From NCBI GenBank assembly GCA_965205485.1, contig OZ242180.1, forward strand, positions 2,528,001 to 2,592,000: 64,000 bases of DNA, read 5' to 3'. Source of the stretch: Candidatus Latescibacterota bacterium. Lineage in GTDB: Bacteria > Latescibacterota > UBA2968 > GCA-2709665. The notes under the pieces were generated by a model. That model did not search any database, was not told where the DNA came from, and worked only from the letters and a program-made list of their open reading frames with translations. Positions 6,542 through 24,001 of this stretch are shown here, one piece after another; position 1 is the first letter of the stretch, and each line of letters starts with the position of its first letter. A program made the position numbers and the translations under genes.

Positions 6542-7789
6542 CTACCGCTCCCACAATTCGCTCAATGGCACCGCGAGCATGCGCCTGTCGGCAAGCGGAA
6601 GACAATCGCGCCCGGCGTAGAGCAGCACGCCGGATACAAAATCCCCGCCGCAGCGGTCCGCGAGCCGAACAAGCCCCTTGCCGTCTCCGGGGGCGAGCGT
6701 ACGGGCGGCTTTGACTTCGATGCCCCATGTCTTCTGACCCCGGGTGATGACCAAATCGACTTCCACCCGATCCTTGTCTCTATAATGCCAGAAACGCAAA
6801 TCCGGTTCCGTCCATGTGGCCTGGGCAATGAGTTGCTGCACCACAAAGGACGCCAACAGATGTCCCATGCGGTCCCTCCTGCCGAGCCAGTCGTACGCGG
6901 TCAGGTCGGCGAGGGTTGCAGCCAGCCCGGTATCGACGAGATGGACCTTGGGCGATCTGATGAGCCGTTTGGCCGGGTTCCGATGCCACGAGGGCAGGCG
7001 TCGCACCAAAAAGAGCCGCTCAAGCACGGCAATGTAGTGATCCACCGTCGACCGGTGCAGCCCGAGGGTATCGGCCAGATTGCTGGCGTTCAATAGTCCG
7101 GCGCTGCGAAGGGCCAACAGCTCCAACAGGCGGCCCAGTTCGTGCGCATCTCTTACCCGCGCCACGTCCCGTACGTCCCGATCGATAATGCTGCGCAGAT
7201 ACTGCCTGTACCATTGCCGGGAGCGCACGGGCGTTCGCGTCAGCGGCTCGGGGTATCCGCCGGCGACCAGTCGGTCCGGCAGTGTCGGCCCTTCGGACGC
7301 CGACTCAGGCCGGATGCCCGGCTTGATCGCGCCGTTGAGCAGGTCGCTGAGGAAGTGGCCTGGCGCGTGCGCTTTTTCGGATTCCGTCAATGGATGCAGC
7401 TGAGCGATTTCCATCCGTCCGGCAAGGGATTCAGTTACGGTGGGCACCATCAACAGATTGGCCGAGCCGGTCAGCACGAAACGACCGGGACGGCGGTCCT
7501 GGTCCACGACGTTTTTGATGGCGGGGAGCAGCGCCGGCGCCCGTTGCACTTCGTCAAGCGTCACCGCATCCGGCAGGCTGGCGACGAAACCCGCCGGATC
7601 CGCCAGGGCGGTCTGATGGTAGTTGTGCTCGTCCAGGCTGACGTATGCGCGGTCGGGCGCGAGTTGTCGCACAAGCGTCGTTTTCCCGCTTTGCCGCGGT
7701 CCGAGTACGCAGACAACCGGCGTGTCGGCCAGCGCCTCCCGGACGACGGGTTCCAGCGAGCGGGGTAACAGGGAACGACTGGCGTCCAT
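6542..7789 (-). CDS. AAA+ ATPase with DUF4143 domain (COG1373 type)
   Basis: Walker A GPRQSGKT, Walker B LDEVQ, LTGSA and ESLAGR motifs, C-terminal EVDLVI...IEVK nuclease-like motif. Confidence 0.92.
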   Translation of the reverse strand: MDASRSLLPRSLEPVVREALADTPVVCVLGPRQSGKTTLVRQLAPDRAYVSLDEHNYHQTALADPAGFVASLPDAVTLDEVQRAPALLPAIKNVVDQDRRPGRFVLTGSANLLMVPTVTESLAGRMEIAQLHPLTESEKAHAPGHFLSDLLNGAIKPGIRPESASEGPTLPDRLVAGGYPEPLTRTPVRSRQWYRQYLRSIIDRDVRDVARVRDAHELGRLLELLALRSAGLLNASNLADTLGLHRSTVDHYIAVLERLFLVRRLPSWHRNPAKRLIRSPKVHLVDTGLAATLADLTAYDWLGRRDRMGHLLASFVVQQLIAQATWTEPDLRFWHYRDKDRVEVDLVITRGQKTWGIEVKAARTLAPGDGKGLVRLADRCGGDFVSGVLLYAGRDCLPLADRRMLAVPLSELWER

Positions 7790-7985
7790 TTGTCGGATTC
7801 GATAGCGTCCAATTGCCGGTTAAGAGAGCGTCCATTTGTCGAATAACTGCGAGGTGGAAATATACAGGAAAGGGACGCGAACGTCAAGAAAAGTGTCTGT
7901 CTACGTCGCAGCCGGCCGACCACGACGCGGCGTGCCGGCAAAACCTCGTTTACCGCAAGGGCGAAAGCAATCAGCGTTTTGCTAG

Positions 7986-9127
7986 TTACTGTTTCCCAGT
8001 CTCGCCCGCCAGTGTCGCGACCGCTTCAACCAGCGTATCCAGCTCCGAGTCGCTGGTGTAGAACGCCACCGAAATCCGCACACCGGAAGGTGCGTTGATG
8101 TTGGTCGCCCGTTGGGCGATTTGCCAGCGGTTCCGGAGCGCGTCAGAGACTTCGTTCCCATCCATGCCCTCGACAGAGAAAGCGACGATGCCGGTCCGGG
8201 TTTCGGCGCGGCGTGAGCCGTTGATCCGCACGCCGGGAATGGCGTCCAGGCGTTCGCGCAGCGATTCCGCCTTTCGTCCCGCCTCCGCGGCGATGGGCTG
8301 CGGCCCGCCGATGCCGGCCAAAAAATCGAGCCCCTCGCCGAGACCCAGGTAGAGCACGCTCGCCGGCGTTCCCATCTCGTACTGCCGGGCCGTACCATCG
8401 GGAGCGTGCGGTCGCCGCAGCGGCTTCAAAAATGGCTGCGCGCCTTTCCTCACATAGAGAAAGCCGGTACCCTTCGGCGAGAGCAACCACTTGTAGCCGT
8501 TGGTGGCGTAGAAGTCGCAGCCGATTTCATGCAGGTCCACCGGAAATTGCCCGAGGGCCTGGCAGCCATCCCAGAGCGTGAAAATGCCGCGGGCCCGCGC
8601 CAGCCCGCAGATCTCGCGGGCGGGCAACCGGGTCCCCCAATCCGTCGTGACATGGCTGAAACAGATCAGCCGGGTACGCGGGTGATCGTTTGCTCCACCC
8701 GGCGCAGAAAAAGGTCTTTATCCGGGTCGATTTCGACCACTTTGACGATCGCCCCTTCACGTTCCGCCAGACCCTGGGCGGCCTGAAGGGGTACCGGATG
8801 TTCCTCATTGGTTATGAGAACCTCGTCTCCCGGTTGCCACCGCAGCCCGCCGAGTACCATACCGTAACCTTCGCCGGTGCTCATCGTCAACGCGATTTCC
8901 CCTGCATCGGCTCCGAAGAAGGCGGCGATTTTGGCCGGCAATTCGTCCTCGGCCTCTCTCATTGCGGCGTACCAGTCGCTCGTACTGACGCTGCCGCTGC
9001 GCAACTGCTGATAGCCCTCGGCGACCGCCTTGTTCACACTGACCGGCGACAGACCGATTCCAGCGGTGTTAAGGTAAACGCCGTGCTTCAGGCCCGGTAT
9101 CTGGCCGCGAATCCACGCGATATCCAT
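7986..9127 (-). CDS. Aminotransferase class V-fold PLP enzyme (cysteine desulfurase/isopenicillin epimerase-like), frameshift near 8675
   Basis: VYLNTAGIG, EEHP, DGCQALG and NGYKWLLSPKGTG motifs split across two ORFs. Adding one C to a CCC run restores TITPRTRLICFSHVTT. Confidence 0.85.
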
Positions 9128-9222
9128 GGGCTGTCCTTTCTTCCTGACTACCGTATCAAGCTCGCCGCCATCTCCGATCGAAGGCAATCTGTCCTTGATC
9201 GCGACGTGATCCACCACGATCC

Positions 9223-9371
9223 GGAGCGAGGGCATCCTGCCCTCGAACTTCGCCTCACCCATCAATGTCCGCACCAGGGGATCGTTGCTTCCTTTGCATT
9301 CGAAATCATATCAGAAATGAATGCGCCAGGGCCTCGCGAATCAGCCGTCGAGGGCAGGATGCCCTCGCTCC
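9223..9371. repeat. Family B REP-like inverted doublet (GAGCGAGGGCATCCTGCCCTCG ... CGAGGGCAGGATGCCCTCGCTC)
   Basis: Palindromic arms in inverted orientation ~130 bp apart. Homologous copies at 44098-44242 and 53054-53204; single arm at 27690. Confidence 0.88.
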
Positions 9372-9493
9372 CGGGAACGCCGATTGGCACAACTGCTCAA
9401 TTGTCAGTCTTCGAGGGAACTCCCTGGCGTGGCTTCGCTATATTCAACCGCAACCAAATAGATGGAAGTCAACGTGCGAGTCCGTTTAACGGT

Positions 9494-9610
9494 CCAATCA
9501 CTCCCCCCTTGAGGGGGAGTCGCAGGAGCCAAGCCGGTCCCTGAGCACGTGCCCTGAGCTTGTCGAAGGGTGTCGAAGGGCCCGGCGACGGCTGATGCGG
9601 TGGGGGGAAT
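9494..9610. repeat. Family A element copy
   Basis: CCAATCACTCCCCCCTTGAGGGGGAGTCGC...GCTGATGCGGTGGGGGG, as at 5656. Confidence 0.85.
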
Positions 9611-9659
9611 ACGTCATCATACCGTATGCATGTCGTAGTCAGGCCGAATGCCGGAACCT

Positions 9660-9898
9660 TCAGGCGACGGATTCATACTCGTAAACCAGGGTCTCAATCA
9701 TGCGAACGGGTCGGCATCGCTCCCACACCGCTCGCTGCAAACGCTCAACGGTCTCCGGTGAGAAGTGCTTCTCGTCCGTCTCCACGTTGACTCGCGCCGG
9801 GACGTTTTCAATCAGGAAGAGCTTGCCCATCCAACTCAATGTGGTAGGTCACCCTTTTCTTCGACCAGCATCTCGTTCCATGCGCTGTCTTCAGGCAT
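9660..9898 (-). pseudogene. YgiT-type/MqsA-like small antitoxin with two +1 frameshifts
   Basis: Corrected reading: MPEDSAWNEMLVEEKVTYHIELDGKLFLIENVPARVNVETDEKHFSPETVERLQRAVWERCRPVRMIETLVYEYESVA*. Both extra bases are G in G runs, so the gene may really be intact. Confidence 0.75.
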
Positions 9899-10400
9899 CG
9901 TCCTCTCCCAACTCCGTCAGAAGCTGCCGTCCCCTGTCCGTCAGCCGGTATTTCTGCTTGCTGCTGGTCGGTTTGTCCGGTATGGTCATTTCCAGCCACC
10001 CGGAATCCATTAGCGGCTTGAGGTAGTTTGCCCGGAAAGTCTTCCGGTGCTTCAGTCCGAGGAACTCCATAATCTCATTTGCAAAGCGGGATCGCCTGCA
10101 ATGCCAGACAACCTGAGCGGTGACTCGTGCGGTGACTTGTGCGGTCAGGTCCTCCAGGGCGTCCGAAAGTATATGTAACATATTGTCCGGAAGGGTGTTA
10201 GAGTCTCCTTGCAGATTCCTGACAACTTGTGCGGTGACCTGGCGCCGACTTGGTGCCGATCTGGTGCCTTGACTCTTGCCCCACTCTTGCCTGACTCTTG
10301 CTTTGGCCCGGTGCGGGTTTCCAATTCTGAGGTTGGTCTGTGGATAATTGTTGTCACCAACGAGTCTGACACTTCGATCCGTGGCGCCGCCACTCTGCCC
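9891..10400 (-). pseudogene. C-terminal fragment with Fic-like C-terminal winged-HTH domain
   Basis: VTAQV repeats, then EIMEFLGLKHRKTFRANYLKPLMDSGWLEMTIPDKPTSSKQKYRLT; no N-terminal catalytic domain present. Confidence 0.7.
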
Positions 10401-10588
10401 TCGTGTCACGGGTCGCGAGATGTATCTGACGCCGATGCTGGAATTGAACGAGACCCCGAAAAGATCGCGTTTCGGAGTCTCAAATTAAGCAGTAGAAACC
10501 ATGTATGCGCGAAAGTTTGTTGAATGCCGAGTGGGAGACGCCAATACCGCGACTGGTATTAGATCAACCGTTGGCGACGGCCAGTGCA

Positions 10589-10991
10589 TTACCATGAAGG
10601 CGTCGAATTACGACGTTTCTCGCAGTAGACATCGACTATCACGTTCAGAGCGTGATTGATTTCTCCATGTTCGAAACGGCCGTGATGATTCTCGTAGAGG
10701 TACCTATAGTGCGTGTGCGAATCACGATGAGAACAAAAGACGTCACGCATGGGATACCGCTTTGCAGAAAACATCTCTTGTAGGTCTGGATTCAGGTTTT
10801 GCATGCCTGGCTGGTCTGCGCGTATCGAGTTGGGGCTCACCTTTCGCATTCTTGCTTCCAGTAATTCTCGTGTGTTCTCCCCAAGGGACTGGTACAAATT
10901 CAGTAAGTCATGGGATTGGACAGGGGTTTCGTTTTTTTCCCAGCACAGCAGCGCCTTCAGTGCGATTTCGGCCGCCAACGACAAAAGGATG
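10589..10991 (-). pseudogene. HEPN-like domain protein, 5' end cut by IS3
   Basis: SLAAEIALKALL...SHDLLNLYQSL resembles the HEPN E-x3-K / HDL pattern; the reading frame abuts the IS inverted repeat. Confidence 0.55.
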
Positions 10992-11032
10992 TGGAGTTGC
11001 TCCGGTTCAGTGGACGGTTTAGGGCTTTCGTA

Positions 11033-11881
11033 TCAAGCCCATGATTTGCGGTTGTTTTCGTAGGTTACGGGCAAGTGGTATCCCAGCGCAGAATGCCTGC
11101 GGTGTGGATTATACCACCCTTCGATGTATTCGAAAAGGGATCGTTTCGCGTCGTGGATCGTGCGGAAGCAGTGGCGGTCCAGCAGCTCGCATTCGACGGT
11201 TGCGAAGAAACTCTCACACAGGGCGTTGTCAAAGCAGTCGCCGACGGATCCCATGGAGGGACGGACACCGGCCTTCTTGCAGCGCAGGCCAAAGGCCAGA
11301 GACGTATACTGCGATTCCTGGTCGGAATGATGGATCACGTTGCTGGGATGACGCTGCCACAAGGCCATATCCAGCGCGTCCAGGACCAGTTGGGTGTGCA
11401 ACCGCGTGTCCATCGCCCACCCGACAATGCGTCTGGAATAGGCATCCAGGACCACGGAAAGGCAGAGGAAGCCTGACCACGTCGGCACGTAGGTGATGTC
11501 GGCCACCCAGAGCTGATCGGGTGCAAAGACCGTAAAGTCCCGATTGACCAGATCGGCAGCGGCACTTTGGTGCTGGCTTTGCGTTGTTGTGCGCACGCCC
11601 TTGCGTCGGCTCACGCCCATCAGGCCCATCTCCCGCAGGAGCCGGGCTACGCGCTTGCGGCCCACCCGGGTGCCCTCAAACGCCAGTTCGGCGTGTATCC
11701 GCGGTGCGCCATAGGTCCCGAACGATCGCGTGTGAATCGCTGCAATACGCTCCTTGAGCACTACATCGGCTGCTGCACGCTTCGAGATGGGTCGCTTCAG
11801 CCACGCATAGCAGCCACTGGTGGAGACGCCCAGCACACGGCACTGCGTGGCCACAGGATAAAATGCCCGGTGCGCCTTCAC
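11033..11881 (-). CDS. IS3 transposase OrfB (DDE integrase core)
   Basis: YGAPRI, WVADITY, HHSDQESQY, DNALCESFF and YNPHRRHSALG motifs. Confidence 0.93.
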   Translation of the reverse strand: MKAHRAFYPVATQCRVLGVSTSGCYAWLKRPISKRAAADVVLKERIAAIHTRSFGTYGAPRIHAELAFEGTRVGRKRVARLLREMGLMGVSRRKGVRTTTQSQHQSAAADLVNRDFTVFAPDQLWVADITYVPTWSGFLCLSVVLDAYSRRIVGWAMDTRLHTQLVLDALDMALWQRHPSNVIHHSDQESQYTSLAFGLRCKKAGVRPSMGSVGDCFDNALCESFFATVECELLDRHCFRTIHDAKRSLFEYIEGWYNPHRRHSALGYHLPVTYENNRKSWA

Positions 11882-12192
11882 GAACGCGAATCCTTCTGTG
11901 GTATCGTGTCGGTCTCCCGTGCGAACCAGGCCGCGGCTTTTGACAAAATCTCACGCTCGATGCGCAACTGCTTGTTCTCACGGCGTAACCGCGCCAGCTC
12001 CTTTCGCTCCTGCGTGGTCAGGCCGTCGGCGCGGCGACCTTCATCTCGGTCGGCCTGCGCCACCCAGCTCCGGATCGTCGGCTCCGAGGGCTCGAACTCC
12101 TTCGCCAGTTCTCGCGGCGTGCGTCCAGCTCGTACCAGCTCCACCATCTGTTGTCGAAACTCGGGCGCATACGCAGGACGGGTCTTCGGCAT
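11878..12192 (-). CDS. IS3 transposase OrfA (HTH + leucine zipper)
   Basis: YAPEFRQQMVELV...ELARLRRENKQLRIEREILSKAAAWFA; GTGA overlap with orfB. Confidence 0.92.
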   Translation of the reverse strand: MPKTRPAYAPEFRQQMVELVRAGRTPRELAKEFEPSEPTIRSWVAQADRDEGRRADGLTTQERKELARLRRENKQLRIEREILSKAAAWFARETDTIPQKDSRS

Positions 12193-12330
12193 GGTGTACC
12201 CCCTTTCTTCTCATCAAAATAACAAGAAGATCGGTGTCCACCAAATCGGGTCAAGTCCAATTACTAATCAATGCATCTGATGGCCAATAGTAGTGGTGAG
12301 TGTGTTGATGGCTTGGTAATTACATACAGC

Positions 12331-13851
12331 TCATTTTTCCTCTGTACTTTGTAGGACCTCGAATGCGACCCGTAAGTAGTTATCCTTAAGCTTCTTTACA
12401 GTGTCCGATTCCAATCTGTCTCGGCGTGCCGCCCGATGTTCGGCGACTCCATCGTAAACACAGTGGCGGAGGTAGTTCTCTATCGAGTTACCTTCGAGCA
12501 TCAGCCAATGTGGATGTTGTCTGTTCACTACAATGACCAAGTTCTGCTCGTCGATATCTTGGTTTACAAAGTACGGATCATTAGGTGAGCCGATCGCATC
12601 GATGTAAACCTTTATTGTCATATCGCTGAGACTTACAACAAAATCAGGATCTTTGTTTGAGGCGTTTTCGACTACATTTCGATTCCCTGCTTCAATCTGA
12701 GATACCGAAGGTAAAACTTCTTCCATCTCAAGTGCCTCAAGGAATTTCGGCGTTTTTAACTCCTCCTCAAGAGCTTTTATCGCTGCATCAACCTGAACGT
12801 CACTAGGACCGTGTTCCGCGGGGCGTCCCCTCCTGGCTTTACGAGCAGTCTCCATAAACGGTTTACAGTATTTGAGCAATCCTTTTTCTACAAGCTCTTC
12901 CTCTTCTCCATCCCAGTTGATTTCATCTTTGGTATGTGAGACTTCAAAATCTTCAAGATTGATTTCTCCTACTACTCGTTGATTGATTAGATCGTTTCTA
13001 CCACCTTGTCCATAAACGGTCTCGGGTCGCCAACTATCTGGCCAACCCTTTATTAGTCGCTGTCGATGTAGTATGGAAAAACCAGCCTTAGATCTGGAGC
13101 CCTTTCGTAATACACCGACCCATCCTTCAGCGACTTTTTTGGGTTCAGTGTCAATCTCGAATATGTATTCGCCTTTGTAAACAGTACCATCATTGCGCTT
13201 CAAGAAATCGTCATCTGAAAACCCTCGCCACTCTAACTCTTGGTCGTTATAGTAAAGCATCATCTGACCGGAAGAGATGTCTTTACGATAGATACTTTCA
13301 AGATACTCCTTAACTTTTGAAATAGTTCGCCCCTTAAGTGGTCGATGATGTGATGTAATCTCGATCAATGTATAGTGTTCACTTTCTGCTACATCCCTTT
13401 TACTAACAGGTGGTGACACATTCCCATCTACTACATCATTAACGTCCACCAATACTGTATACTCATTAGAATCGCGTAGCTTTGTCGTGATAATTTTCCA
13501 GTTGTCACCAATCCAACATGCCGCAGTCTTCATTCCCAGGCCGTATTGTGATCTCCCCTCGGTGTTTTGGGGCGGTACACCAACCCTCATGGCTCGCCCT
13601 AGGTCGTCATAATCCATACCCATAGCATTGTCCCGTATACGAACGAGATCTTGGTCAGTGGATATCATTACCGTAAACTGGTCTCCCTCGTTATTGAACA
13701 CTGGATCAAGAGACGAGGTATTGTCGTAGTATGATTGTGTGGAGTTATCAACGAATTCCGCTAACGCGAACCACCATTTATATGCTAAGCGACGGTAGTT
13801 AGCAAAGTTCTCGTGTCCAAATCTGATCTCTAGCGGCACAACGACCTCCAT
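12331..13851 (-). CDS. MORC/GHKL-type ATPase (HATPase_c_3 family)
   Basis: Bergerat-fold motifs ALAEFVDNS, IRDNAMGM and SQYGLGMKTA; downstream RVVGEINL...VSHTKDEINW resembles the MORC S5-like domain. Confidence 0.85.
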   Translation of the reverse strand: MEVVVPLEIRFGHENFANYRRLAYKWWFALAEFVDNSTQSYYDNTSSLDPVFNNEGDQFTVMISTDQDLVRIRDNAMGMDYDDLGRAMRVGVPPQNTEGRSQYGLGMKTAACWIGDNWKIITTKLRDSNEYTVLVDVNDVVDGNVSPPVSKRDVAESEHYTLIEITSHHRPLKGRTISKVKEYLESIYRKDISSGQMMLYYNDQELEWRGFSDDDFLKRNDGTVYKGEYIFEIDTEPKKVAEGWVGVLRKGSRSKAGFSILHRQRLIKGWPDSWRPETVYGQGGRNDLINQRVVGEINLEDFEVSHTKDEINWDGEEEELVEKGLLKYCKPFMETARKARRGRPAEHGPSDVQVDAAIKALEEELKTPKFLEALEMEEVLPSVSQIEAGNRNVVENASNKDPDFVVSLSDMTIKVYIDAIGSPNDPYFVNQDIDEQNLVIVVNRQHPHWLMLEGNSIENYLRHCVYDGVAEHRAARRDRLESDTVKKLKDNYLRVAFEVLQSTEEK

Positions 13852-13866
13852 TTCGATTTATTAAAC

Positions 13867-14649
13867 TTATAGTTCACGTAGTTGAAACCTATTCTCACCG
13901 ATACGACGCACCTCGTAGTTCCGGTCTGAAGAAACATTGAATCCGCCGGGGGCAAAAAACACTACACTGTCCATAGCACGTAAAACCTTCCAAGTATACG
14001 GCCTTTGGTCAACATACAACTGTACTTCATTCTGAATACTTGCCGGAACGGTTTCCGGTTGAACGCAGATTAGGGAATTCATCATATTCAATTTCTTAAG
14101 TCTAAAGACCCTATCCGACACCGGCGCAGGTAGATATCCTGAGATAGAAACAATTACGTCGTCGTGCTCGGATCGAAATGACTCAAGATAAGTAAGATGG
14201 GCTGAATGTTCATTTTCGATTGCTGACCACCCACTCTTCAATACAGTCCGGGAGTTTACCACTACAACCACCTTGGGCGGGATATAGTGTATTAGGTTCT
14301 TTAATGCACATAAGTCTAAAGTCGAGTCCTTCTGATGTAGTAAATCCGCATGCGTGGAATCGTATCGCCCAGTAACAAAGGTCTGAACCTGCGGTAGTAC
14401 GTGGTGTTCAAGTGAGTGATTCTCAAGCTCGATTTCAACAACAACCCACATTTTGTAGTTACGATGTACAAACGCCAAATCAGGTCTACGACGAGATCCA
14501 TGATCACCAAGAATATGCGGTGAGAAGTCAAGTATAGAGAAGTCAGGAAGTACCTTTCTCAGTTCGATTTTTACGATACTGGTATAATGTCGTTCATCTT
14601 CGTAAAAGACCTGTTCGTAGATTCGATTTCTGCGTATAAGTCGAGTCAA
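13867..14649 (-). CDS. Hypothetical protein with putative PD-(D/E)xK-like nuclease motif
   Basis: RRPDLAFV...WVVVEIELENH...Q, preceded by an E-containing helix; TTGA overlap with the helicase stop. Confidence 0.6.
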   Translation of the reverse strand: MTRLIRRNRIYEQVFYEDERHYTSIVKIELRKVLPDFSILDFSPHILGDHGSRRRPDLAFVHRNYKMWVVVEIELENHSLEHHVLPQVQTFVTGRYDSTHADLLHQKDSTLDLCALKNLIHYIPPKVVVVVNSRTVLKSGWSAIENEHSAHLTYLESFRSEHDDVIVSISGYLPAPVSDRVFRLKKLNMMNSLICVQPETVPASIQNEVQLYVDQRPYTWKVLRAMDSVVFFAPGGFNVSSDRNYEVRRIGENRFQLREL

Positions 14650-15884
14650 TGAATAGTTCCTCGGCTCCAGGAGACGTCCGCTACACCCTCTAGATTGGTC
14701 GCTTCTCTTGACAACCGGATACGTTGATCGTCTCCGACGTATAGTGTATAAACCAATGCACGCCGTTTGCTATGTGCAGGACGAAGCACGCGTCCCAGTC
14801 GCTGGATTCTTTGACGGGTGCTAGAAGTGGAGTGCGCAACGATTGCTATGTTTGCTTCTGGTACATTCGCGCCTTCGTCGAGAGCACGACAGGTAACAAG
14901 CATGTTGACAATTCCTCGTCGAAAAAGGCGGAGGTTGTCCCTTCGGTGTGAATCTGAAAGGCTGGAGTGGTACGTCACTGAGTTCTGACCGAGACTGGCA
15001 AGTAATTCCGCAATTGACTCGACATCAGCAACACGCTCGTGGAAAACTATGACACGTTCACGTTTATGACTTAATGCCAATTTTACCGCCCATGGTACTC
15101 TCAAAGCACGTTCAGCCGATCTAGTGATTTTGGTCGACTTCGATCTGCTACTTGCGGCTAAGACAACAGAAGCACTTCCTGAAGTATCCTTTGAGTTTTT
15201 CATGCGACTTTGGAGTCGGCTTAAGTCACCCGCGCTGAATCCTATTTCGATATTCATTAAATCGAAATCTACGATCACACCGTCAGTTTTTGCTGTGCGG
15301 TAGTCGTAGTCATAAATCACAGGTCCGAGAGCAGGGGTGATTCTTGTCACGAAACCGTCGTCTGCCTCTCGCTCAGGAGTAGCAGATAACCCGAGAGTGG
15401 CTGGGACAGACGGGTCATGGTTTCCCATGAGCGCTCGACTGTTCTCAACGGCCCCGGCTCGATGGCACTCGTCGACGATAAGGAACGTTGTTCCCGAATT
15501 TGACAATTCCTGTGAGACTAATCGAGCTGTGTTTAAAACGAGGATATTAACCCGTTTGGGATGTTCCGGTTTTGAACTTCCGGAATAGCAGGCGATTTCG
15601 GTTTCATCGATATCTGTAGCATCACTAATGTCCACAAACCATTGATCTAGTAATGCTATCGTAGGCACCACAATAATGGCCTTTCCATCGGGGTATTCCG
15701 TGAAGAACCGTTTCAAGCAAAGAAACGAAAAGACTGTCTTACCACCGCCAGTAACCACACGTGCAATGCCAGTGAATTCTCTATCCCAAGCCTTAAACGC
15801 TTCAATCTGCCATCGTCTAGGGATTATCGATTGATCGAGCTGCAAGTTGTGCCCTTTCAAAAACTGTATGGTGTCTCCCGCCAC
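14646..15884 (-). CDS. Superfamily 2 DEAD/DEAH-box helicase (ResIII/XPB-like)
   Basis: PRRWQ (Q motif), TGGGKT, LIVDECH, LGLSATP, LDEGANVP and QRLGRVLR motifs. Confidence 0.92.
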   Translation of the reverse strand: MAGDTIQFLKGHNLQLDQSIIPRRWQIEAFKAWDREFTGIARVVTGGGKTVFSFLCLKRFFTEYPDGKAIIVVPTIALLDQWFVDISDATDIDETEIACYSGSSKPEHPKRVNILVLNTARLVSQELSNSGTTFLIVDECHRAGAVENSRALMGNHDPSVPATLGLSATPEREADDGFVTRITPALGPVIYDYDYRTAKTDGVIVDFDLMNIEIGFSAGDLSRLQSRMKNSKDTSGSASVVLAASSRSKSTKITRSAERALRVPWAVKLALSHKRERVIVFHERVADVESIAELLASLGQNSVTYHSSLSDSHRRDNLRLFRRGIVNMLVTCRALDEGANVPEANIAIVAHSTSSTRQRIQRLGRVLRPAHSKRRALVYTLYVGDDQRIRLSREATNLEGVADVSWSRGTIH

Positions 15885-15938
15885 AACGCGGGCATTTCAC
15901 TGCAATTTGGACTTCAAATCGTTGTAAATCAAAAACAA

Positions 15939-16922
15939 TTACTGCTTTCGGAGGTTTTTCTTACTTTTAGTGAATCGCCCAAGCGATCCATCCAGAAATT
16001 CCCGATCAGGTTCAACTGCTACCCATCTGCGCCCTAAGTCTTCTGCTGCTTTTCCTGTCGTATTACTACCAGCGAACGGATCCAGTACCAATGCATCTGA
16101 TTTGGTAAGGAATTTGATGAAGAACTCGGCGAGTCCAATCGGCATTCGGGCTGGATGCGGTCGAAGCTGATGGGTACGGCAGTAATTCAAGTAGTTTGAA
16201 CTTGCCTGCGTATTCGCTAGGGAGATCAGGTTTGACGGAATGGCTCCAGCATTATCTGTTAAGAATGAGTTTTTCCCAATATGGTGTTCAGAAGGTCGCT
16301 CCCCAGAGTTGTAACTTTTACGTACTAAGAGATCCTCCATTGCTTTACTGTATTTTGTTAATACCTGGCGGTTGTCAGCATATGGCCTGTCTGTAGGTGC
16401 CATCCACCAGAGATGTGTATATGCGTCCTTAACTCGGATGCGCTCGACATTCACCCACTGAGCTGGTCCGGGGAGTTTTGCAGGGTTGTGCCACACGAAC
16501 TGTTGGCACAGTACGAATTCGCCATGCTCCAAGAAAGCTAGTAGTGCCTGCAACGCTAACGTAGACATTACTGGCCGTCCCGGTTCCCATGCATTTCCAA
16601 GTTCTAAGACTACTGAACCTGCGGGTTTCAAAGCATTCTTGAAAAGAGGTGCAAATCCTTTGAGCCATTCCACGTATGCCTCGCCTTGTTCGTTTCCGTA
16701 GCGCTTTTTTCTATTGAGAGGAAACGGGGGTGAGGTAAAGATGAGATCGACTTGCCCTTCGAGCTCACTCGAGTAAGTACGTGACCTTAATACATCCTCA
16801 GCTAGCCCGAGTATGGATCGACCCAGTGTCGTTCTGTAGATGGTTTTAGGTCTACGTTTGCGACTATGTTTGTCCTTCGTGGAACTCTTTTCTACAACCT
16901 CATCTTCATTAGATCTATTCAC
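15939..16922 (-). CDS. Site-specific DNA methyltransferase, N4-cytosine/N6-adenine beta class
   Basis: Catalytic TSPPF precedes HPARMP and the SAM-binding VLDPFAGS motif (beta order); SPP suggests N4-cytosine specificity. Confidence 0.92.
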   Translation of the reverse strand: MNRSNEDEVVEKSSTKDKHSRKRRPKTIYRTTLGRSILGLAEDVLRSRTYSSELEGQVDLIFTSPPFPLNRKKRYGNEQGEAYVEWLKGFAPLFKNALKPAGSVVLELGNAWEPGRPVMSTLALQALLAFLEHGEFVLCQQFVWHNPAKLPGPAQWVNVERIRVKDAYTHLWWMAPTDRPYADNRQVLTKYSKAMEDLLVRKSYNSGERPSEHHIGKNSFLTDNAGAIPSNLISLANTQASSNYLNYCRTHQLRPHPARMPIGLAEFFIKFLTKSDALVLDPFAGSNTTGKAAEDLGRRWVAVEPDREFLDGSLGRFTKSKKNLRKQ

Positions 16923-17036
16923 CGGATTTTCCCCGACTGATGTTACCCCATATTAGTGGCCGGATTACCGTTTGGGATGCAGACTGCTTTTTTAAGCTCC
17001 TTTCATTTTTTAAAAGCCGCCAACGCCTAATTAAAC

Positions 17037-19187
17037 TCATCTGCACACCAAGGTACCAGCATGCTTTCCTAGTGCCGATCGCCGTTGAACACGTTCGGCC
17101 GCGTCATGAACCAACTGCTCCTGGGCTTTTTCGCATAGGTCTGGTGGCGGTTCGGCGCCTTCGTCCACGGGTTCGAATTCACGCGCCTTCTCCTGAATGC
17201 GATCAGTATCGATGGCGGCCAGTAGATCGCCAACGATTTGAGTGAGTTCGGTGCCGCCGGCCTGCTCCTTGATTCGTTCTTTCTCGGTGGAATCGAGTTG
17301 TTGATCAAGCCGCGCGAGGCGCCCGGCGAGAGAACTCACCGTGTCTTCATCGTGGGCGCCCATCATCACGCCCATCGCGAGGTCCTTTAGGGGCACTGTC
17401 GGCTGGGTGATGAGCGGTTGGCTGGCGGTCTTGAGCGACGTCGTGACACCGACCGCGTCCACGATGACATAGTGGGTCTTGCTGGTAGTAGCTGAAGGAG
17501 AGACTTTTTTGAGGTCGTCGTAATCAAGAGTACGGGTCCCGCGACCCTTCATCTGCTCGAAATAGTTGCGGCTACGCACATCACGCATAAATAGCAAGCA
17601 TTCGAGTGGTCTGACATCGGTGCCAGTTGCAATCATATCCACCGTGACAGCGATACGCGGGTAATAGTCGTTTCGATACTGGGCGAGGACAGTTTTCGGT
17701 TCTTCTTTGGATCTGTATGTGACCTTCTTGCAGAACTCATTGCCTTCGCCGAACTCCTCACGCACAGTCTGAATGATGTCGTCTGCATGGCTGTCCGTCT
17801 TGGCGAAAATCAGCGTCTTCGGAACTTCGCCACGGCCAGGGAAAATCTCAGGCAAATTGCCGCGGAATGTGCCGATGACGGTACGGATCTGATCCGGATT
17901 GACGACGGCGCGGTCCAGTTCTCGTCCTGAATAGACAAGCGCTTCGTCCTGAATCTCCCAGCGTTTGCGCCGCGTGAGCCGCTCTCTACGTTGGACTGCT
18001 TGGCGTGCCCTGATCTGGCCCCCGCGCTCTGTCCTTTCCGTCTCAATCACATAGACTTCGTTGCCGACGTTGACGCCGTCTGCGACGGCTTGATCATGCG
18101 TATATTCGCTGACGATGTTTTTCTTAAAGAACCCGTATGTGCGGTTGTCCGGTGTGGCGGTGAGGCCAATGAGGAATGCGTCGAAGTATTCGAGGACCTG
18201 GCGCCAGAGGTTATAGATCGACCGGTGGCATTCGTCAATGACGATGAAATCAAAAAACTCGGGCGGAATCTTGTCGTTGTAGACAACCGGCACCGGTTGA
18301 CTGGGTTGCGTCAATTCCGCCGGGTTGATCTCTTCCGCTGCTTCGTCTATCCCCTCGCCCTTAAGGAGGGAATACATGCGCTGGATGGTGCTGATACAAA
18401 CCTGGCTATCGTTGGCAACATAGGACGATTTGAGACGCTGCACGTTGTAGAGTTCAGTGAATTTGCGATTGTCGTCGTTCGGCACGTACGCCATGAATTC
18501 CTGCTCGGCCTGTTCACCCAAATGCCTGGTGTCTACGAGAAAGAGGACCCTCTTGGCGTCCGCGTGTTTGAGCAGCCGGTAAATCGACGTGATGGCGGTG
18601 TAGGTCTTGCCAGAGCCGGTGGCCATCTGAATGAGTGCGCGCGGACGGATGTCTTTAAACGATGCTTCGAGATTCTCGATGGCGCGTATCTGGCACGCCC
18701 TGAATCCGGCAGGGTTGACCTCAGGGAGTGTCTGAAGCCTGGCGCGAAGCGAGTCGTCATTTGCGTTCCATTCCGCCAGGGTCTCCGGTCGCGGGAAGTT
18801 GAATATCTCCCGCGAACGAGGTTTCGGATCGCGTCCATCGGTAAACCGCGTAAGCACACCCGTAGATTCGTATACGAACGGCAGGGGTTCTCTGTTTTTG
18901 ACCCATTTGAGTTCGGCAGCAGCATAAGTGCCCGATTGCGATTCGACGGTCGTGATATTGTGACCCCATTCTTCCGGCTTGGCCTCGACAACACCGACGG
19001 CCTGCTTGTCAACAAAGAGAACGTAGTCGGCTGGGCCAACGTCCGTCTGATATTCGCGGACAGCGATACCGCGCCCCGCGCTGAAGTCAAGCTTGTTTTT
19101 CGACTGTACGTTCCAGCCGGCCTGAACCAACATCGCGTCGATTTTGTCGCGTGCCTTTTGTTCCGGAGTGCGGTAAATGTCTGTCAC
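17037..19187 (-). pseudogene. hsdR: Type I restriction enzyme R subunit (EcoEI/EcoAI-like), C-terminally truncated
   Basis: Nuclease ADYVLF...VEAK, helicase MATGSGKT, DECHRS, GLTATP, TGTD and QMKGRGTR motifs. Family-like sequence appears to stop near 17078 (AANVFNGD in a shifted frame); no hsdM/hsdS nearby. Confidence 0.82.
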
Positions 19188-19343
19188 TGCGAAGGTCCTA
19201 TTTCATAAATTCGCCCGATTCAACCGATCTATATAGGGTACCTTATAGCTCGCGCAATATACGAAAATCTTCATTGTTGGTCAATGCGACCAGAGCAAAA
19301 AGTGACGCATTTTGCGACGCGATAGGCGCGTTTTGCGACACAG

Positions 19344-19375
19344 AAAAAACCCCGATGAAATCGTTCATCGGGGTC
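19344..19375 (-). terminator. Putative rho-independent terminator
   Basis: Minus strand GACCCCGATGAA-CGAT-TTCATCGGGG followed by TTTTTT. Confidence 0.6.
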
Positions 19376-19949
19376 ATCTGTCATACATCAGGTGTAGCAC
19401 GCGGCCGTCAGTCTAAAACCGATAGCGCTATTTCAAGGCGAAGTCAAACGGCGATATGCGCACCAGGACGAGGTGAACCACGAAAAACAAAAGGAAAAAG
19501 GAAGAAGGAAAAAGGAAGAAATAACGGCAGGATAGTCTCGTAGACCGTCGCCGGCATTCAAGATGTATGCGAGTGCCGGCGTGGTAGATCGACTGGAATT
19601 GACCCGATTAAAGGCGAATGATCCGGCCTGATTAGGCCGATCTTCAACTGGCCTGGTTAGGCCGATCCTGCATTGGCCGCATCTGGGCGATCATTGACAG
19701 AGTGCGCAAGGAAGAAATAAAGGTCGGACAATCGCGTGGCCCGTCGTCAGCATCCACGACGTCTGCGATTGCCTGCCCGTTACTTGAGACCCGTTCCGCT
19801 CGGGAACACCAGAATAAGGGCGAATAAATGGAGAAGGAAAAAGGCGACATCCGGAAGGAGAAAGGAAGAAGAGATGGGGGTTATGCAACAACGACGATAC
19901 CGTCAGGAAATCAATTGCTGTTCAACCGCGTTTCGTTTTTTGCGATACG

Positions 19950-20186
19950 CTACCCAAAGTTATCAAGCCTTTCGTCTATGCGTTCAATCGCTCGCAACAA
20001 TCGAAATTCAACCTGTTTGATTGTCTCTTTATTCTCTTTAATTTCTGCCATTAAACGAGATTCCGAAGCGCTCACCATCCATTGCACAACGGCGAGGTTG
20101 ACACCGACTAACAAAACAAGAACACTGCCAAAGGAAACAGCTACTTTTATCGCATTCCCCCATTTGGACCATAGGCTGTTACTCAT
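19950..20186 (-). CDS. Small membrane protein (one TM helix + coiled coil)
   Basis: 78 aa, RBS AAGGGG upstream, hydrophobic VAVSFGSVLVLLVGVNLAVV segment. Confidence 0.6.
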   Translation of the reverse strand: MSNSLWSKWGNAIKVAVSFGSVLVLLVGVNLAVVQWMVSASESRLMAEIKENKETIKQVEFRLLRAIERIDERLDNFG

Positions 20187-20518
20187 GATTTCCCCTTATT
20201 TTCTTGATACAAGAGTGCGTCGTGCGCATTTTCGCTGAACCATGTCATTAGTGTGTTCCGCAAGTTGTCTTTTGCGAAAAAGTAAGGTAACTCGGTTCGA
20301 CAAAGTACGGTGGCCAACGCGGGTTTTTTGTAAACCCACTATTTTGAAAAAAGTACCCAATCGGATTTATCCTGTCAAGTGCATATGATGAAATTTGGGG
20401 GAATTGCAGCGAGCATGAAGAGAGGTACGCTGAGGAAGAATGATGAGCGCAAGCAGAGGCAGGATGTGAAGGGGTATTGGAAGCGGATACCAACCGAGCA
20501 AGAAGATGGTAGAGCTCA

Positions 20519-20632
20519 TCAATCACGCATTCTTCGTTCTGCCTTTTTCCTTCTTCCTTGCCTTGCGTCAGCCTGTGTTTCGTCGTCTCTCAATAGATAC
20601 CGCAGCAGGACATTGGTGTCGATTGCGATCAA
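20519..20632 (-). pseudogene. VapC/PIN toxin N-terminal remnant
   Basis: MIAIDTNVLLRYLLRDDETQA then runs into a purine heptamer tract and stops; TTGA overlap with the AbrB gene. Confidence 0.8.
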
Positions 20633-20870
20633 GGCGTTCGGTCCCGCTTTCTCTCTATGGCGTCCTGGCGCGACTCCTCGTCTGAAACCGTCGGATCTCC
20701 TTCAAGATGCGCCAGGCATCCCCAGGCGCTACCGGGCTCTAGGCGGACGATGGTGATGCGGCCATCGGCCACGAAACTCAGGCACTCGTCGCCTGGCTCG
20801 ATGCCTGCTAAACGGCACTGATCGGCCGGGAGCGTGATCTGTCGCTTGGCGCTGAGTTTGGGCGAGATTT
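20629..20870 (-). CDS. AbrB/MazE/SpoVT-family antitoxin (start codon unclear)
   Basis: PKLSAKRQITLPADQCRLAGIEPGD...FVADGRITI; GGAG RBS is followed by TCG where a start codon is expected. Confidence 0.72.
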
Positions 20871-21213
20871 CTCCAATCCAGTAAAGGAAAAAGGAAGAAG
20901 GAAAAAGGAAGAAATACAAGCAGGAAAATCGCGTGGACTGCCGCCGGGATTCACGATGTGTGTGGAGTTGCCCGTTACTTGAGACCCGTTCCGCTCGGGA
21001 AGACGCGAATAAAGGAAAAAGGAAGAAATCTGGCCCAAATCACCTGCTGACCTGTCGCCCGCATTCTCTGTTTCTCTCTACCTATTGCCCTTCCGTGGCC
21101 AGTCCCTCATCACGTGTAGCATTCTGCGACGGTTTCGGTGCGCTGTTTGGCACATTCAACCCGATCACGCAATTCTCCCTTCCTCCTTACTTTGTAGACG
21201 ATCGGCGCGTTTT

Positions 21214-21631
21214 TCATTTCGCGTCGTTCTTTCTCTTGATCTGTTCCACGAATGCCTCGCCTCTAGGAGTACGGCGGTAGCGCTGGTGGCGGCTCGTGGG
21301 CTTGTCCGGGAGGGTCATTTCAATCAATCCGGCCTCCAGGGCAGGATTCAGGTATGATTCGATGAAATGGGGCCGGCCTTTGAGTTCCAATCCTGCCTGG
21401 ATACTGGCGCGGCTCATCTCTCCCGTGAGGACAGCCACCAGTTGCTGGATTTGGTCCGTGACCTGGTCTGTATCTTGTGGGGTATCTTGTTGGGCGTCTT
21501 GTGGGGTATCTTGTTGGGTGTCGTGACCTTTCCCAATAATTTTCAATGACTTATCTTGTCCTGTATCTGTATCTTGTTCCGTATCTTGTTCCGTCGCGGG
21601 GAGTAAAGCCCGCTCATTCACTGGCGTGAGC
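21214..21631 (-). pseudogene. Second Fic-like C-terminal winged-HTH fragment with 12-bp (QDTx) repeats
   Basis: DTQQDTPQDAQQDTPQDTDQVTDQ...YLNPALEAGLIEMTLPDKPTSRHQRYR; the 5' side abuts the repeat unit at 21632. Confidence 0.7.
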
Positions 21632-21926
21632 AAAGGAAAAAGGAAGAAGGAAAAAGGAAGGAATAAAGGCAGGATGATCGCTTGGACTGCCGCCAGCATT
21701 CACGATGTATGCGATTGCCTGCGACTTACTTGAGCCCCGTTGCGCTCTGGAACACCGGAATATTGGCGAATAAATGTAGAAGGAGAAAGGAAGAAGGAAA
21801 AAGGAAGAAATATCGGCAGGATAATCGCGTGGTCCGTCGCCGTGAATGACTATGTCTGCGATAACCTGTCAATTCCAGAAATCGCATTTTCTCCTTCTAC
21901 CTTCTTCCTTCTTCGTTCTTCCTTTT

Positions 21927-22298
21927 TTATGTGCCGCGTTCATTGTTGCTCTTCGCCTTGCGTATTGAAGCGACGAAAATCGCGGTCAATTCGCCGCATT
22001 CATCTGTCAGGCCTGCAAGTCGCTCATCGGAGACGATTCCTGAGTCGCCGAGCAGTTCAAGCCAATACCCGGTTTCTTCAATCTCCTTCAAACATTCGCC
22101 AACCTTTGAGATGAATTCCGCTTTGCTCCGCGCGCGATATGCTTCCCGGTAGTTTGCCCCCACAGACGTTCCGGAACGAATCATCTGCCTGCCTATGACT
22201 TGAGCCTCGGTCTGCTTTGAAAGGCCCGAATACAGGCGAATGATCCGGAGTGCAAACTCCTTCGTCCGGGTCCGAAGATCAACCACTTCTTCCTTCAT
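21927..22298 (-). CDS. Four helix bundle protein (23S rRNA IVS protein / Avd-like family)
   Basis: DLRTRTKEFALRII...QMIRSGTSVGANYREA.RARSKAEFISK...EIEETGYWLELL; flanked by purine heptamer tracts. Confidence 0.92.
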   Translation of the reverse strand: MKEEVVDLRTRTKEFALRIIRLYSGLSKQTEAQVIGRQMIRSGTSVGANYREAYRARSKAEFISKVGECLKEIEETGYWLELLGDSGIVSDERLAGLTDECGELTAIFVASIRKAKSNNERGT

Positions 22299-22343
22299 TC
22301 TTGCAACACCTCGCTCAGCTCATCAATCCCACACTTCTTCCTT

Positions 22344-22568
22344 CTACCTTTTTACTTCTACTTTACCGTCCAGCCTCCACGCGGCATAGGCCAGGGAATG
22401 GTCGATGTCCTTCTCGTTCAAGGTATGGATATGCTTGAGGATTTCGTCACGCGTGCGTCCGGCCGCCAGCAGTCCTACGACGGCACCCACCGTGACGCGC
22501 AGACCGCGAATGCACGCCTTGCCGCCCATCACCGCTGGATCGATGGTGATCCTCTCGAATGAATCCAT
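22344..22568 (-). CDS. DUF433 domain protein (putative antitoxin)
   Basis: RITIDPAVMGGKACIRGLRVTV...DIDHSLAYAAWR. Confidence 0.88.
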   Translation of the reverse strand: MDSFERITIDPAVMGGKACIRGLRVTVGAVVGLLAAGRTRDEILKHIHTLNEKDIDHSLAYAAWRLDGKVEVKR

Positions 22569-22652
22569 GATACTTCTCTTCTTGTGTTCAGACGTACCGA
22601 ACCGCGCTTTCATGCCAACCCCACGCGGTTGCGTGAGCTTGGACGATTCGTA

Positions 22653-23204
22653 TCAACTGGATGGATGACCGACTGCCTTATCCACCAGCGGTGCCAGTTC
22701 GCTCCACGCTGCGAGAATGGTCTTCACCAGGTAGTCGCGGTACTCCTTGAGGTTGTCACCCTCCCAGTACCTGTCTCTTGGTGGATCCACGTTTCGATAG
22801 GCTGGCCACCAAGCGGTCGACTCTGGATAATCAGGACGTGCATCCTTCGCGAAATGCACTCTGTAGTGTTTCACGTTCGTCCTGACTCCGCAGATCAACC
22901 CTCCATCTTCAGAGAACAGCGCGGGCTTGCTATACCATCCCAGTCTCACATCCGGCTCTTCGTCACCCTCGGGCCAATCCTTGCGCCGCAGGCCCAACCC
23001 AGAAAAGTTCTCGTCAGTTAGAAACGCCTCGACACCGTTATAGGTGATATTATCGTTCCTCAGGGCCCACTCGAGATCGCCCTCGAGACTGCGGTAGAAG
23101 TGATTCACGAACTCCGACACTTCGTCTACCAACTCAGCCCATTCCATGATCTGCTTCTCGTGCTCGAAATAGAACTTGATCCGTTCGTCTTCGATCCGAT
23201 TCAT
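22653..23204 (-). CDS. Hypothetical protein, translationally coupled to the PD-(D/E)xK gene
   Basis: ATG at 23204 overlaps the upstream stop (ATGA); acidic, Trp-rich, ~183 aa. Confidence 0.65.
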   Translation of the reverse strand: MNRIEDERIKFYFEHEKQIMEWAELVDEVSEFVNHFYRSLEGDLEWALRNDNITYNGVEAFLTDENFSGLGLRRKDWPEGDEEPDVRLGWYSKPALFSEDGGLICGVRTNVKHYRVHFAKDARPDYPESTAWWPAYRNVDPPRDRYWEGDNLKEYRDYLVKTILAAWSELAPLVDKAVGHPSS

Positions 23205-24001
23205 CCGAACTGCTCCTTGAGTGTCCGTGAATAGTTCCTGACGACTTCTACGGCCGGTGCAACGCCGGTCTTGTTTCGTGATTCGTTTAATGCCGTGTCC
23301 AACATCGCCCGGACCTTGGGCCAGGAGAGGGTCTTGAAAGCGCGTTGGGCGCATGGCGTGGTTGCCGTATGCGGCTTGCGGCCATCGGGGGTCAGGAACA
23401 GGAACAGTGGCTCATTTTCGTTCTTGAAGTTCTCGTACAAGTCGTCGCACTGGCTCGGCTGTTCTGACGCGTCGACCTTGTTCTCGATGACGAGCGTGAA
23501 GTTCTCGCCCCACACGACGAGGTCGGCCTCTCTGTCGTTCCGCCACTCAGAGAACGCCACCTTCCGAACTGCAAGTTGCGCCGGCACAGTCTCTCCAGTG
23601 CAATGTTCCACGAAGCGCCTGACCAGCCCCGAACCCAACCCGTGCCGTGCCGTCGGCGTCAAGAGCCACAGAAGCACGCGAGAATGGGTGTTCTCGTGGC
23701 GGGCCAGGCCCACGATATCGAGGAAGTCTGATGGCCCGGTCAGCCATAGCCCGTCCGAAACGAGGCGGTCTTGCTGGCAGCGCATCTCCGCCATGGTCTC
23801 ATGCCACTAGGCAAGGAGGGTTTTCGTCCGACGCGCGGCGATCTCGCCCCAACTGTACTCCATTGTCCGAACAGCGCTACGCCAGTCGGCCAGGAGCGCT
23901 TTTGTCTGGCGCAAGGCGATCTCGTCCCATTCGCGCTCCATCGCACGAATGTTCACTTTCCACGAGGGGACTTGATTGTCTTGTGAGGCCATTAAGGGCA
24001 T
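23201..24001 (-). CDS. PD-(D/E)xK nuclease family protein (PDDEXK_4-like); in-frame TAG at 23807-23809
   Basis: HENTHSRVLLWLL.P...HGLG and ADLVV...LVIENKV...EQ..Q motifs; the upstream 64-aa ORF is in the same frame. Confidence 0.8.

Follow-up and report, generated by a model that had tools for sequence, protein, structure and literature searches.

A mobile MORC ATPase cassette in a Latescibacterota bacterium as a candidate ATP-dependent restriction-modification system

Bacterial MORC ATPases were predicted in 2008 to be components of restriction-modification (RM) systems and the source of the eukaryotic MORC silencers (PMC2292703). The available text of that paper, by Iyer, Abhiman and Aravind, presents a computational prediction with no experiments. 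An October 2026 preprint, in its accessible part, still terms the RM role of bacterial MORCs 'proposed' (10.64898/2026.09.30.754977), and a 2021 paper, as far as its accessible text goes, describes these proteins as poorly understood (PMC8011034). Here we analyzed a stretch of 64,000 nucleotides (hereafter the window) from a Candidatus Latescibacterota bacterium (contig OZ242180.1, positions 2,528,001 to 2,592,000), which carries a cassette of four genes encoding a MORC ATPase of the GHKL class, a protein that we call X, an XPB/Rad25-like superfamily 2 (SF2) helicase and a DNA methylase. The cassette is real, intact, mobile and widespread; it is unnamed within the literature searched, and its outline was predicted in 2008. 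We read it as an ATP-dependent, methylation-protected RM system and give this reading a probability of roughly 0.65, which for the system as a whole we infer from the anatomy of the proteins and the linkage of the genes.

A first-pass annotation of the window had proposed the architecture as a candidate undescribed system and had stated that prokaryotic MORC operons typically contain Z1 helicases. Both statements fail against the available text of Iyer 2008, in which MORC, a Rad25-like helicase, a restriction endonuclease (RE)-fold nuclease and a methylase make up the first operon type and Z1 belongs only to the third (PMC2292703). Like that type-1 operon, the cassette combines a true MORC, a neighboring Rad25/XPB-like SF2 helicase, an RE-fold nuclease and a linked DNA methylase (found in 72 of the 75 loci with X), and it shows sporadic lateral spread. 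Versions of the cassette that have a second GHKL ATPase and no helicase fit the MORC plus paraMORC1 subset of the same paper, and one of their carriers, L. blandensis (locus L099), is named in the legend of its Fig 1 (PMC2292703). The cassette differs from the published description in 3 respects. In the type-1 operon, the Rad25-like helicase commonly shares one polypeptide with a nuclease of the RE fold or HKD type, whereas the nuclease of the cassette stands alone; because the paper says 'commonly', we take this as a mark of a variant and not as an exclusion. In the text available, B3 is mentioned only for SWI2/SNF2 operons, whereas X carries a B3-like domain, and the methylase of the cassette is a PvuII-like amino-methylase (PMC2292703). 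We regard the cassette as a variant of the type-1 operon, and the exact operon may be drawn in a figure or supplement of that paper. No paper testing the cassette was found in the literature searched; as a prediction, it could figure in papers behind subscription, in supplements on bioRxiv or among the genes listed by Iyer 2008. The terms MORC and GHKL were not found in the accessible portions of PMC13092281, 10.1101/2025.01.08.631966 and PMC12707154. In agreement with the first-pass annotation, no named system was matched in PADLOC 2.0 (2023), NCBIfam (June 2026) or the Pfam system models.

The best tested model for X is provided by the CglI and NgoAVII systems, which also consist of a separate methylase, a nuclease-B3 protein and an SF2 ATPase, and in which cleavage by R.CglI and R.NgoAVII needs the SF2 ATPase partner (PMC4267653, accessible text). 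Their nuclease is of the PLD type, their ATPase is a DEAD-Z1 protein, their methylase produces 5-methylcytosine (5mC) and they have no MORC (PMC4267653). We rejected membership of the cassette in this group because it has a PD-ExE and not a PLD nuclease, no Z1 match and an amino-methylase. By analogy, the cassette likely works as they do although it is not a member, and the combination of nuclease-B3 protein, SF2 ATPase and methylase, being the tested CglI/NgoAVII design, supports the RM reading (PMC4267653). Mza (mzaABCDE) is another comparable system, validated as a multi-gene anti-phage defense with a MORC-like ATPase, MzaB, according to the available parts of the sources (PMC9523054, PMC13223576). 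Membership in Mza was rejected since the MzaB model scored 21 bits (cut-off 850), over the ATP-binding stretch only, and no match to MzaA, MzaC, MzaD, MzaE, Z1 or AIPR was found. The Mza system of Gao 2020 reportedly also includes a PD-(D/E)xK protein, next to MzaC (Z1), MzaD and MzaE (AIPR).

We followed the 4 genes through two sets of loci. Of 57 metagenome loci anchored on X, 27 contain all four genes and 49 contain one partner or more; the loci without a partner are mostly on short contigs. The four-gene loci of this set show five arrangements, the commonest being methylase-MORC-helicase-X (22 loci), and the 8 partnerless loci comprise 5 with X no more than 200 bp from the contig start, a marginal match, and 2 in which X is solo (L029 and L031). 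The second set was anchored on MORC, of which at least 395 relatives were found among 185,579 species genomes, and consists of the best 80 of 395, a selection biased towards the arrangement of the window. Of these 80 loci, 76 contain X, 60 a PvuII-like methylase and 50 the helicase; the complete set of four genes occurs in 49, and the gene order of the window recurs in 41, so that the recurrence in unrelated genomes on which the first-pass annotation had made its proposal depend does occur. These results confirm that the four genes co-occur far beyond chance, and because several gene orders exist, the linkage survives rearrangement. The same 80 loci belong to 16 phylum-level groups, and in a quick tree the five nearest rows to the MORC of the window come from five phyla (SH-aLRT 99). 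No fifth conserved neighbor gene was found in the four-gene loci. Between pairs of loci, the identities of X, of MORC and of the helicase rise and fall together (Spearman 0.76–0.86), whereas with the methylase the values are 0.28–0.41 (61 four-gene loci; the comparison is limited by related loci and saturation).

As a unit, the four-gene set stands only in part: it recurs, but 30 of the best 80 MORC loci lack the helicase. The conserved core is X, MORC and any methylase, with X and MORC nearly inseparable; this definition of the core, together with an exchangeable second ATPase, is new. When loci with X were identified by tblastn, the methylases of the 72 loci that have one fell into three classes, 59 being PvuII-like, 12 permuted alpha-order N4/N6 enzymes (the order being inferred from the Pfam match) and 1 a Dam-like D12 protein, and they were nearly always adjacent and co-oriented. 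The 3 loci without a methylase are L094, in which the nuclease half of X is gone and MORC is interrupted, L112, which lies at a contig end, and L110, considered below. An alternative to the RM reading is a MORC-gated sensor nuclease of two genes that follows the logic of Shedu I-D or Tiamat, in which X and MORC would sense the ends of DNA, base modifications or a protein of the phage, with the methylase as a loose companion. In favor of this idea, different loci have different classes of methylase, and covariation of the methylase with the other parts is weak. It also agrees with the resemblance of X to the NucS, Mrr-like AF1548 and SduA folds, the high variability of its B3-like domain, and the validation of single-gene GHKL plus PD-(D/E)xK defenses, namely VcSduA (PMC12137116) and Tiamat (10.64898/2026.09.30.754977), in the accessible parts of those reports. 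Against it stands the regular presence of a methylase beside X and MORC, from three unrelated classes; a companion that can be spared would be expected to disappear and not to be exchanged time and again. We consider the sensor nuclease improbable.

In 12 loci a protein of 750 amino acids, never found alongside the helicase, stands in the helicase's stead; its GHKL motifs were read by eye in an alignment, and it has no Pfam match. Since most of these loci are from related Bacteroidota, they are not independent. A five-gene variant from this group consists of a conserved open reading frame (ORF) of 76–90 codons, the 750-residue second GHKL ATPase, an alpha-order N4/N6 methylase, X and MORC (L085:3457-9518, L095, L099, L103, L119, L120, L123, L124, L125 and L133). 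In these 10 loci, the genes for X and MORC are depleted of GATC, with an observed/expected ratio (O/E) of 0.42 compared with 0.66 in the flanks.

Single loci depart from these patterns in other ways. At L028:4191-11566 and L106:2137-9512, a further X-MORC pair, which is divergent, comes after MORC-methylase-helicase-X, giving two putative restriction modules with one methylase. Methylase and helicase form a single ORF of 654 amino acids at L105:5243-7207, which is either a real fusion or an assembly error. Two loci have MORC but not X: at L071:4800-9551 the neighbors of MORC are a 5mC methylase and a type II restriction endonuclease, and at L075:1-2193 an HNH gene comes after MORC, the upstream side ending at the contig end. 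At L116:8004-14456, MORC converges on a PvuII-like methylase and a second GHKL ATPase of 771 amino acids, and X was not detected. An AAA_21/OLD-like ATPase gene precedes X and MORC at L110:5338-9518.

Protein X forms a family of 442 representatives at the 50% cluster level (E ≤ 1e-3). Pfam, NCBIfam and PADLOC held no family for the 141 aligned members, save for three weak matches of single members, and comparison of the sequence with the PDB gave nothing useful. The structure model of X has two domains (predicted local distance difference test, pLDDT, 91). With VIA-align, residues 1–177 matched NucS (2vld; Z 9.1, root-mean-square deviation [rmsd] 3.0, 108 residues aligned), followed by XisH (Z 8.7), BstEII (8.3) and Bax1 (8.2), and the top 27 structural matches, covering a model range of about 11–177, are mostly nucleases of the PD-(D/E)xK fold as recognized by their entry titles. 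Foldseek gave no match for X at E ≤ 0.001, so the fold call rests on VIA-align. The motifs PD57 and E72-I-E74 are present in the translation, and D57, E72, E74 and Q87 were found in every one of the 141 rows, E19 in 139; the nuclease residues are thus invariant despite identities of about 25–30% among members, with E and not K in the third motif position (ExE). Residues 1–177 are therefore predicted to be a PD-(D/E)xK nuclease domain, in line with the nuclease fold proposed for this gene. Residues 178–260, modeled within whole X, matched the B3 domain of RAV1 (1wid; Z 6.8, rmsd 2.8, 81 aligned), LlaJI.R1-N (Z 6.0) and BfiI (Z 5.5). All structural rows covering residues 174–260 are plant B3, LlaJI.R1-N or BfiI-C (Z 5.1–6.8, rmsd 2.8–3.7, 80–87 aligned). 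With moderate confidence, the models point to a B3/EcoRII-N-like DNA-binding domain with a seven-stranded pseudobarrel, which is highly variable among members of the family. The first-pass annotation, which had listed a separate PD...ExE protein, was hence right about the fold but overlooked this predicted second domain, and the predicted nuclease-B3 anatomy of X is new. In the ESM Atlas the nearest X clusters are unnamed; NucS_C, at 0.82–0.84 in a minority of members, was kept only as a lead. No longer or fused forms of X were found among 7570 candidates, which is weak evidence.

Because the top fold matches of X are NucS/EndoMS (Z 9.1 and 8.8), we considered methyl-directed repair of a MutL/MutH/UvrD- or Vsr-like kind, in which the helicase would work with an ATPase resembling MutL and a mismatch nuclease resembling NucS, and the methyl mark would direct them to one strand. 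MORC and MutL do share a common GHKL+S5 module (Z 18.2), a parallel remarked on in the available text of Iyer 2008 (PMC2292703). Yet the identity to NucS is 17% and its Z score lies within about 1 of those of XisH, BstEII and Bax1, X has a separate B3-like domain, and the distribution of the cassette is sporadic, mobile and like that of a defense island, with a type I RM locus replaced in the window. A role in repair is thus highly unlikely.

The MORC protein matches Pfam HATPase_c_3 (E 3e-15) and, weakly, Morc6_S5, and its translation contains EFVDNS, DNAMGM and GLGMKT. The four ATP-binding motifs are intact, with E32, D35, N36, D74, G78, G104, G106, K108, T109 and T161 kept in at least 95% of 103 homologues. 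The motif GhXhhpXXRhl in S5, which the accessible text of Iyer 2008 gives as a MORC trait absent from paraMORCs (PMC2292703), lies at residues 257–267 and is strict in 80 and relaxed in 102 of 104 rows. Top Foldseek matches were MORC3 (5ix2, E 1e-15) and MORC2 (9cdj). Structural alignment of the model gave SMCHD1 (Z 25.4), MORC3 (Z 24.6) and MORC2 (Z 23.7), all aligned over residues 10–343 with rmsd 2.9–3.5. The family motif and the closest folds together indicate that the ATPase is a true prokaryotic MORC with GHKL and S5 domains (residues 1–340). The alpha/beta domain that follows possibly serves dimerization or partner binding. We rejected a protease assignment for this domain, suggested by a Wss1/YbeY zincin-like match (Z 5–7), because it has no HExxH and its pLDDT is low.

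The helicase, described beforehand as a compact XPB/ResIII-like protein without a fused nuclease or Z1 domain, fits that description in the Pfam domain search: it matches ResIII, Helicase_C and ERCC3_RAD25_C and consists of helicase domains only, a PLD domain likewise being absent. Its motifs GGGKT, DECH, LSATP and QRLGR were read in the translation, and Walker A, DECH, SAT and QRxGR are kept in at least 95% of 80 homologues. Top PDB matches are XPB/RAD25 proteins, archaeal XPBII (6p4f, E 8e-24) being the closest solved relative. This relates the cassette to the archaeal XPB-Bax1 complex (6p4f, 6p4w), whose Bax1 nuclease domain is among the matches of X; XPB-Bax1 is, in contrast, a repair complex without methylase, MORC or B3 domain. 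Against TIGR04095 the helicase scored 127 bits (cut-off 600). Its closest PADLOC model is PbeA, of which it matches the helicase part alone (profile 248-635 of 672, E 2e-54), and PbeABCD halts viral replication without cleavage in the accessible text of the report (PMC6459918). The cassette has a methylase, MORC and a PD-ExE nuclease instead, and membership in PbeABCD was rejected because the PbeA profile is matched only from position 248 on, with no PLD, no match to PbeB, PbeC or PbeD and no recurring dnd neighbors. Defense without classical cutting could still be the function, as in BREX, DISARM or Pbe, if the ATPases stop unmethylated phage DNA from replicating by binding to it, with a secondary or abortive role for the nuclease. 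Besides PbeA, such a block is favored by the ability of eukaryotic MORCs to compact or trap DNA (10.64898/2026.09.30.754977, accessible part) and by L110, which has no nearby methylase. It is disfavored by the nuclease, since X is the tightest-linked partner (76 of 80 loci) and its catalytic residues are invariant, by the helicase being the dispensable part, and by the neighborhoods, in which no PbeB/C/D, Brx, Drm or dnd component recurs. We regard a non-cutting block as unlikely, while giving it some weight.

For the methylase, Pfam N6_N4_Mtase (E 3e-31), PADLOC MTase_II PDLC03323 (E 3e-83) and a match to M.PvuII in the PDB (1boo, E 8e-70 over residues 28–319) uphold its earlier assignment as a beta-class SPP enzyme. 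SPPF and FAGS are present in the translation, and SPPF and PFxGS are kept in at least 95% of 83 homologues. We predict an M.PvuII-like beta-class enzyme that writes N4-methylcytosine (m4C). The homology to M.PvuII includes the loops that are usually regarded as target-recognizing. Close as the methylase is to that of the PvuII type II system, no R.PvuII-like gene was seen.

Within the RM reading, the M.PvuII-like enzyme would write m4C at a short site and so mark the DNA of the host, as its sequence suggests. The B3-like domain of X may then read the unmethylated site, by analogy with R.CglI, R.NgoAVII and BfiI. A MORC dimer could clamp or loop DNA in an ATP cycle and license the PD-ExE nuclease, which would agree with GHKL chemistry and the strict linkage of X and MORC and was proposed in 2008 (PMC2292703, available text). 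X, the predicted nuclease-B3 protein, would thereby cut unmarked incoming DNA with the aid of MORC. The XPB-like ATPase may be an auxiliary motor, which would translocate on the DNA or open it once a first nick has been made, in the manner of XPB-Bax1, and some lineages would do without it or use the second GHKL ATPase instead. Gene linkage, mobility, conserved catalytic residues and methylase exchange are the demonstrated part of the reading. Tentatively, and at slightly less than even odds, we propose that the obligatory motor is the MORC clamp and not the helicase, so that a core of X and MORC plugs into at least three methylase classes and the XPB-like ATPase, the second GHKL ATPase or nothing is accessory.

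Several observations weigh against restriction as the function. None of the best-conserved columns of the B3-like domain is a conserved polar position, even though conservation is high (modal 0.65) in the putative recognition region of the methylase. The B3 matches (Z 5–7) fall in a range that may reflect a common arrangement. At matched MORC identity, the identity of the B3-like domain is not lower across different methylase classes (0.195 versus 0.186, 0.40–0.45 bin); L066 and L076 were mislabeled as helicase-less in this test, which leaves the comparison of same and different classes unaffected. Target-site avoidance, measured for palindromes against synonymous-codon shuffles (80 words), was not found, CAGCTG having an O/E of 0.80 in the cassettes and 0.56 in the flanks. 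Genome-wide, the O/E of CAGCTG is 0.70 (rank 6 of 64, in a single genome without control). CTCGAG (0.57 in cassettes versus 0.89 in flanks) was distrusted as a target because 80 words were tested and the loci are related. In addition, at L110, where X and MORC look intact, none of the four methylase types queried was found within 17.5 kb. The nearest folds of X (NucS/EndoMS, XisH and AF1548) are not classical site-specific restriction enzymes, and its motif is ExE rather than ExK. Finally, PbeA, the best defense match of the helicase, comes from a system described, in the accessible text, as blocking viruses without cutting DNA (PMC6459918).

The cassette is a compact test case, with at least 395 MORC relatives, a nuclease family of 442 clusters without a library model, cultured carriers, and variants with and without helicase. 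Among the cultured carriers, Qipengyuania thermophila (L114) and Roseicella frigidaeris (L132) have the four-gene form and Flavobacterium ponti (L118) has a helicase-free one. If it restricts DNA, the cassette represents an RM architecture that PADLOC 2.0 models only by its methylase and in which cleavage is tied to a methyl mark through a GHKL clamp. If the MORC clamp is indeed the motor, the form with three genes and no helicase would be the most compact system for the action of MORC on methylated versus unmethylated DNA, and the ancestral activity behind MORC/SMCHD1 silencing would become accessible.

Table 1. Genes of the cassette and its immediate flanks, in positions of the window.
Feature	Position	Strand	Basis or remark
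N4-cytosine/N6-adenine methylase	15939-16922	minus	327 aa ORF
XPB/Rad25-like helicase	14646-15884	minus	412 aa ORF
Protein X	13867-14649	minus	260 aa ORF
GHKL/MORC ATPase	12331-13851	minus	506 aa ORF
MORC C-terminal alpha/beta domain (residues 347-504)	12331-12813	minus	conserved N443, H446, P447, D467, E471, K489
Type I hsdR, truncated (flank, outside the system)	17037..19187	minus	homology to same-genus relatives
IS3-type transposase orfA/orfB (flank, outside the system)	11033..12192	minus	Pfam rve, HTH_21, HTH_Tnp_1

At the locus itself (Table 1), the first-pass description proved accurate. The four genes are intact, co-oriented and tightly packed (54 bp between methylase and helicase, an overlap of 4 bp between helicase and X, and 15 bp between X and MORC), and the motifs claimed for them are present in all four translations. 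The cassette is also lower in GC, at 45.9% (0.459) compared with 59.9% (0.599) for the genome; no 4.6-kb window sampled genome-wide at 1-kb steps was as low, and GC at third codon positions (GC3) is 0.41–0.45 in its genes versus 0.65 in hsdR. The downstream element carries the Pfam domains of an IS3-type transposase, as claimed, and is single-copy, with one blastn match in the genome. Likewise, hsdR is broken: its homology to same-genus relatives ends at about residue 698 (window ~17079), residues 1–698 being 82–89% identical to ORFs of 950–952 amino acids in three same-genus genomes, and the limit of DNA homology lies at 17079 in 2 of these 3 relatives and at 17172 in the third. In one same-genus genome (G006), the genes after hsdR are hsdS, hsdM and an Mrr gene, and the two genomes become syntenic again at ~10250 of the window, so that the cassette, the IS3-type element and a short ORF occupy the position of the remainder of that RM locus (end of hsdR, hsdS and hsdM). 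The cassette thus truncates hsdR. Contigs of run X1, which is possibly the source sample, cross the junctions at 16798-17172 and 12231-13327 without differences, and the junctions are therefore not assembly artefacts. Contigs of runs X4 and X5, from another study, carry 12267-16862 at ~93–97% identity; there the cassette stops at 12267 with other DNA past that point, the matching hsdR flank is absent, and indels in the helicase preserve the frame (+3, -12, -1/+1). Copies with different surroundings and in-frame indels argue that the four genes move as a unit, and by sequence they appear to be recently acquired and mobile as one. Terminal repeats, a consensus promoter and a terminator were looked for at the cassette and not found, and MORC gave no match to phage records and one match, at 28%, to plasmids.

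X was not found in 60 related genomes examined, 14 of them of the same genus. This patchy distribution (0 of 60 relatives), the spread across phyla and the decay of parts together in L094, L111 and L136 would be expected of a selfish addiction module, in which nuclease and methylase persist by post-segregational killing with little protection from phage. Such a module leaves two conserved ATPases with intact catalytic motifs unexplained, and we hold it to be very improbable as the full account; addiction is compatible with the RM reading rather than exclusive of it.

The cassette lies in a wider low-GC region, 6542-26397, that has the character of a defense and toxin-antitoxin hotspot. Its genes include AAA_14-DUF4143, an ORF with a Fic-like C-terminus, a weak HEPN match (10589-10984), a 23S rRNA IVP-family ORF, PDDEXK_4, MNT and HEPN genes and a ParA-like ATPase. 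Upstream of hsdR, at 19488-21860, lies a degenerate repeat family (repeat D1) with multiple cross-matches to relatives.

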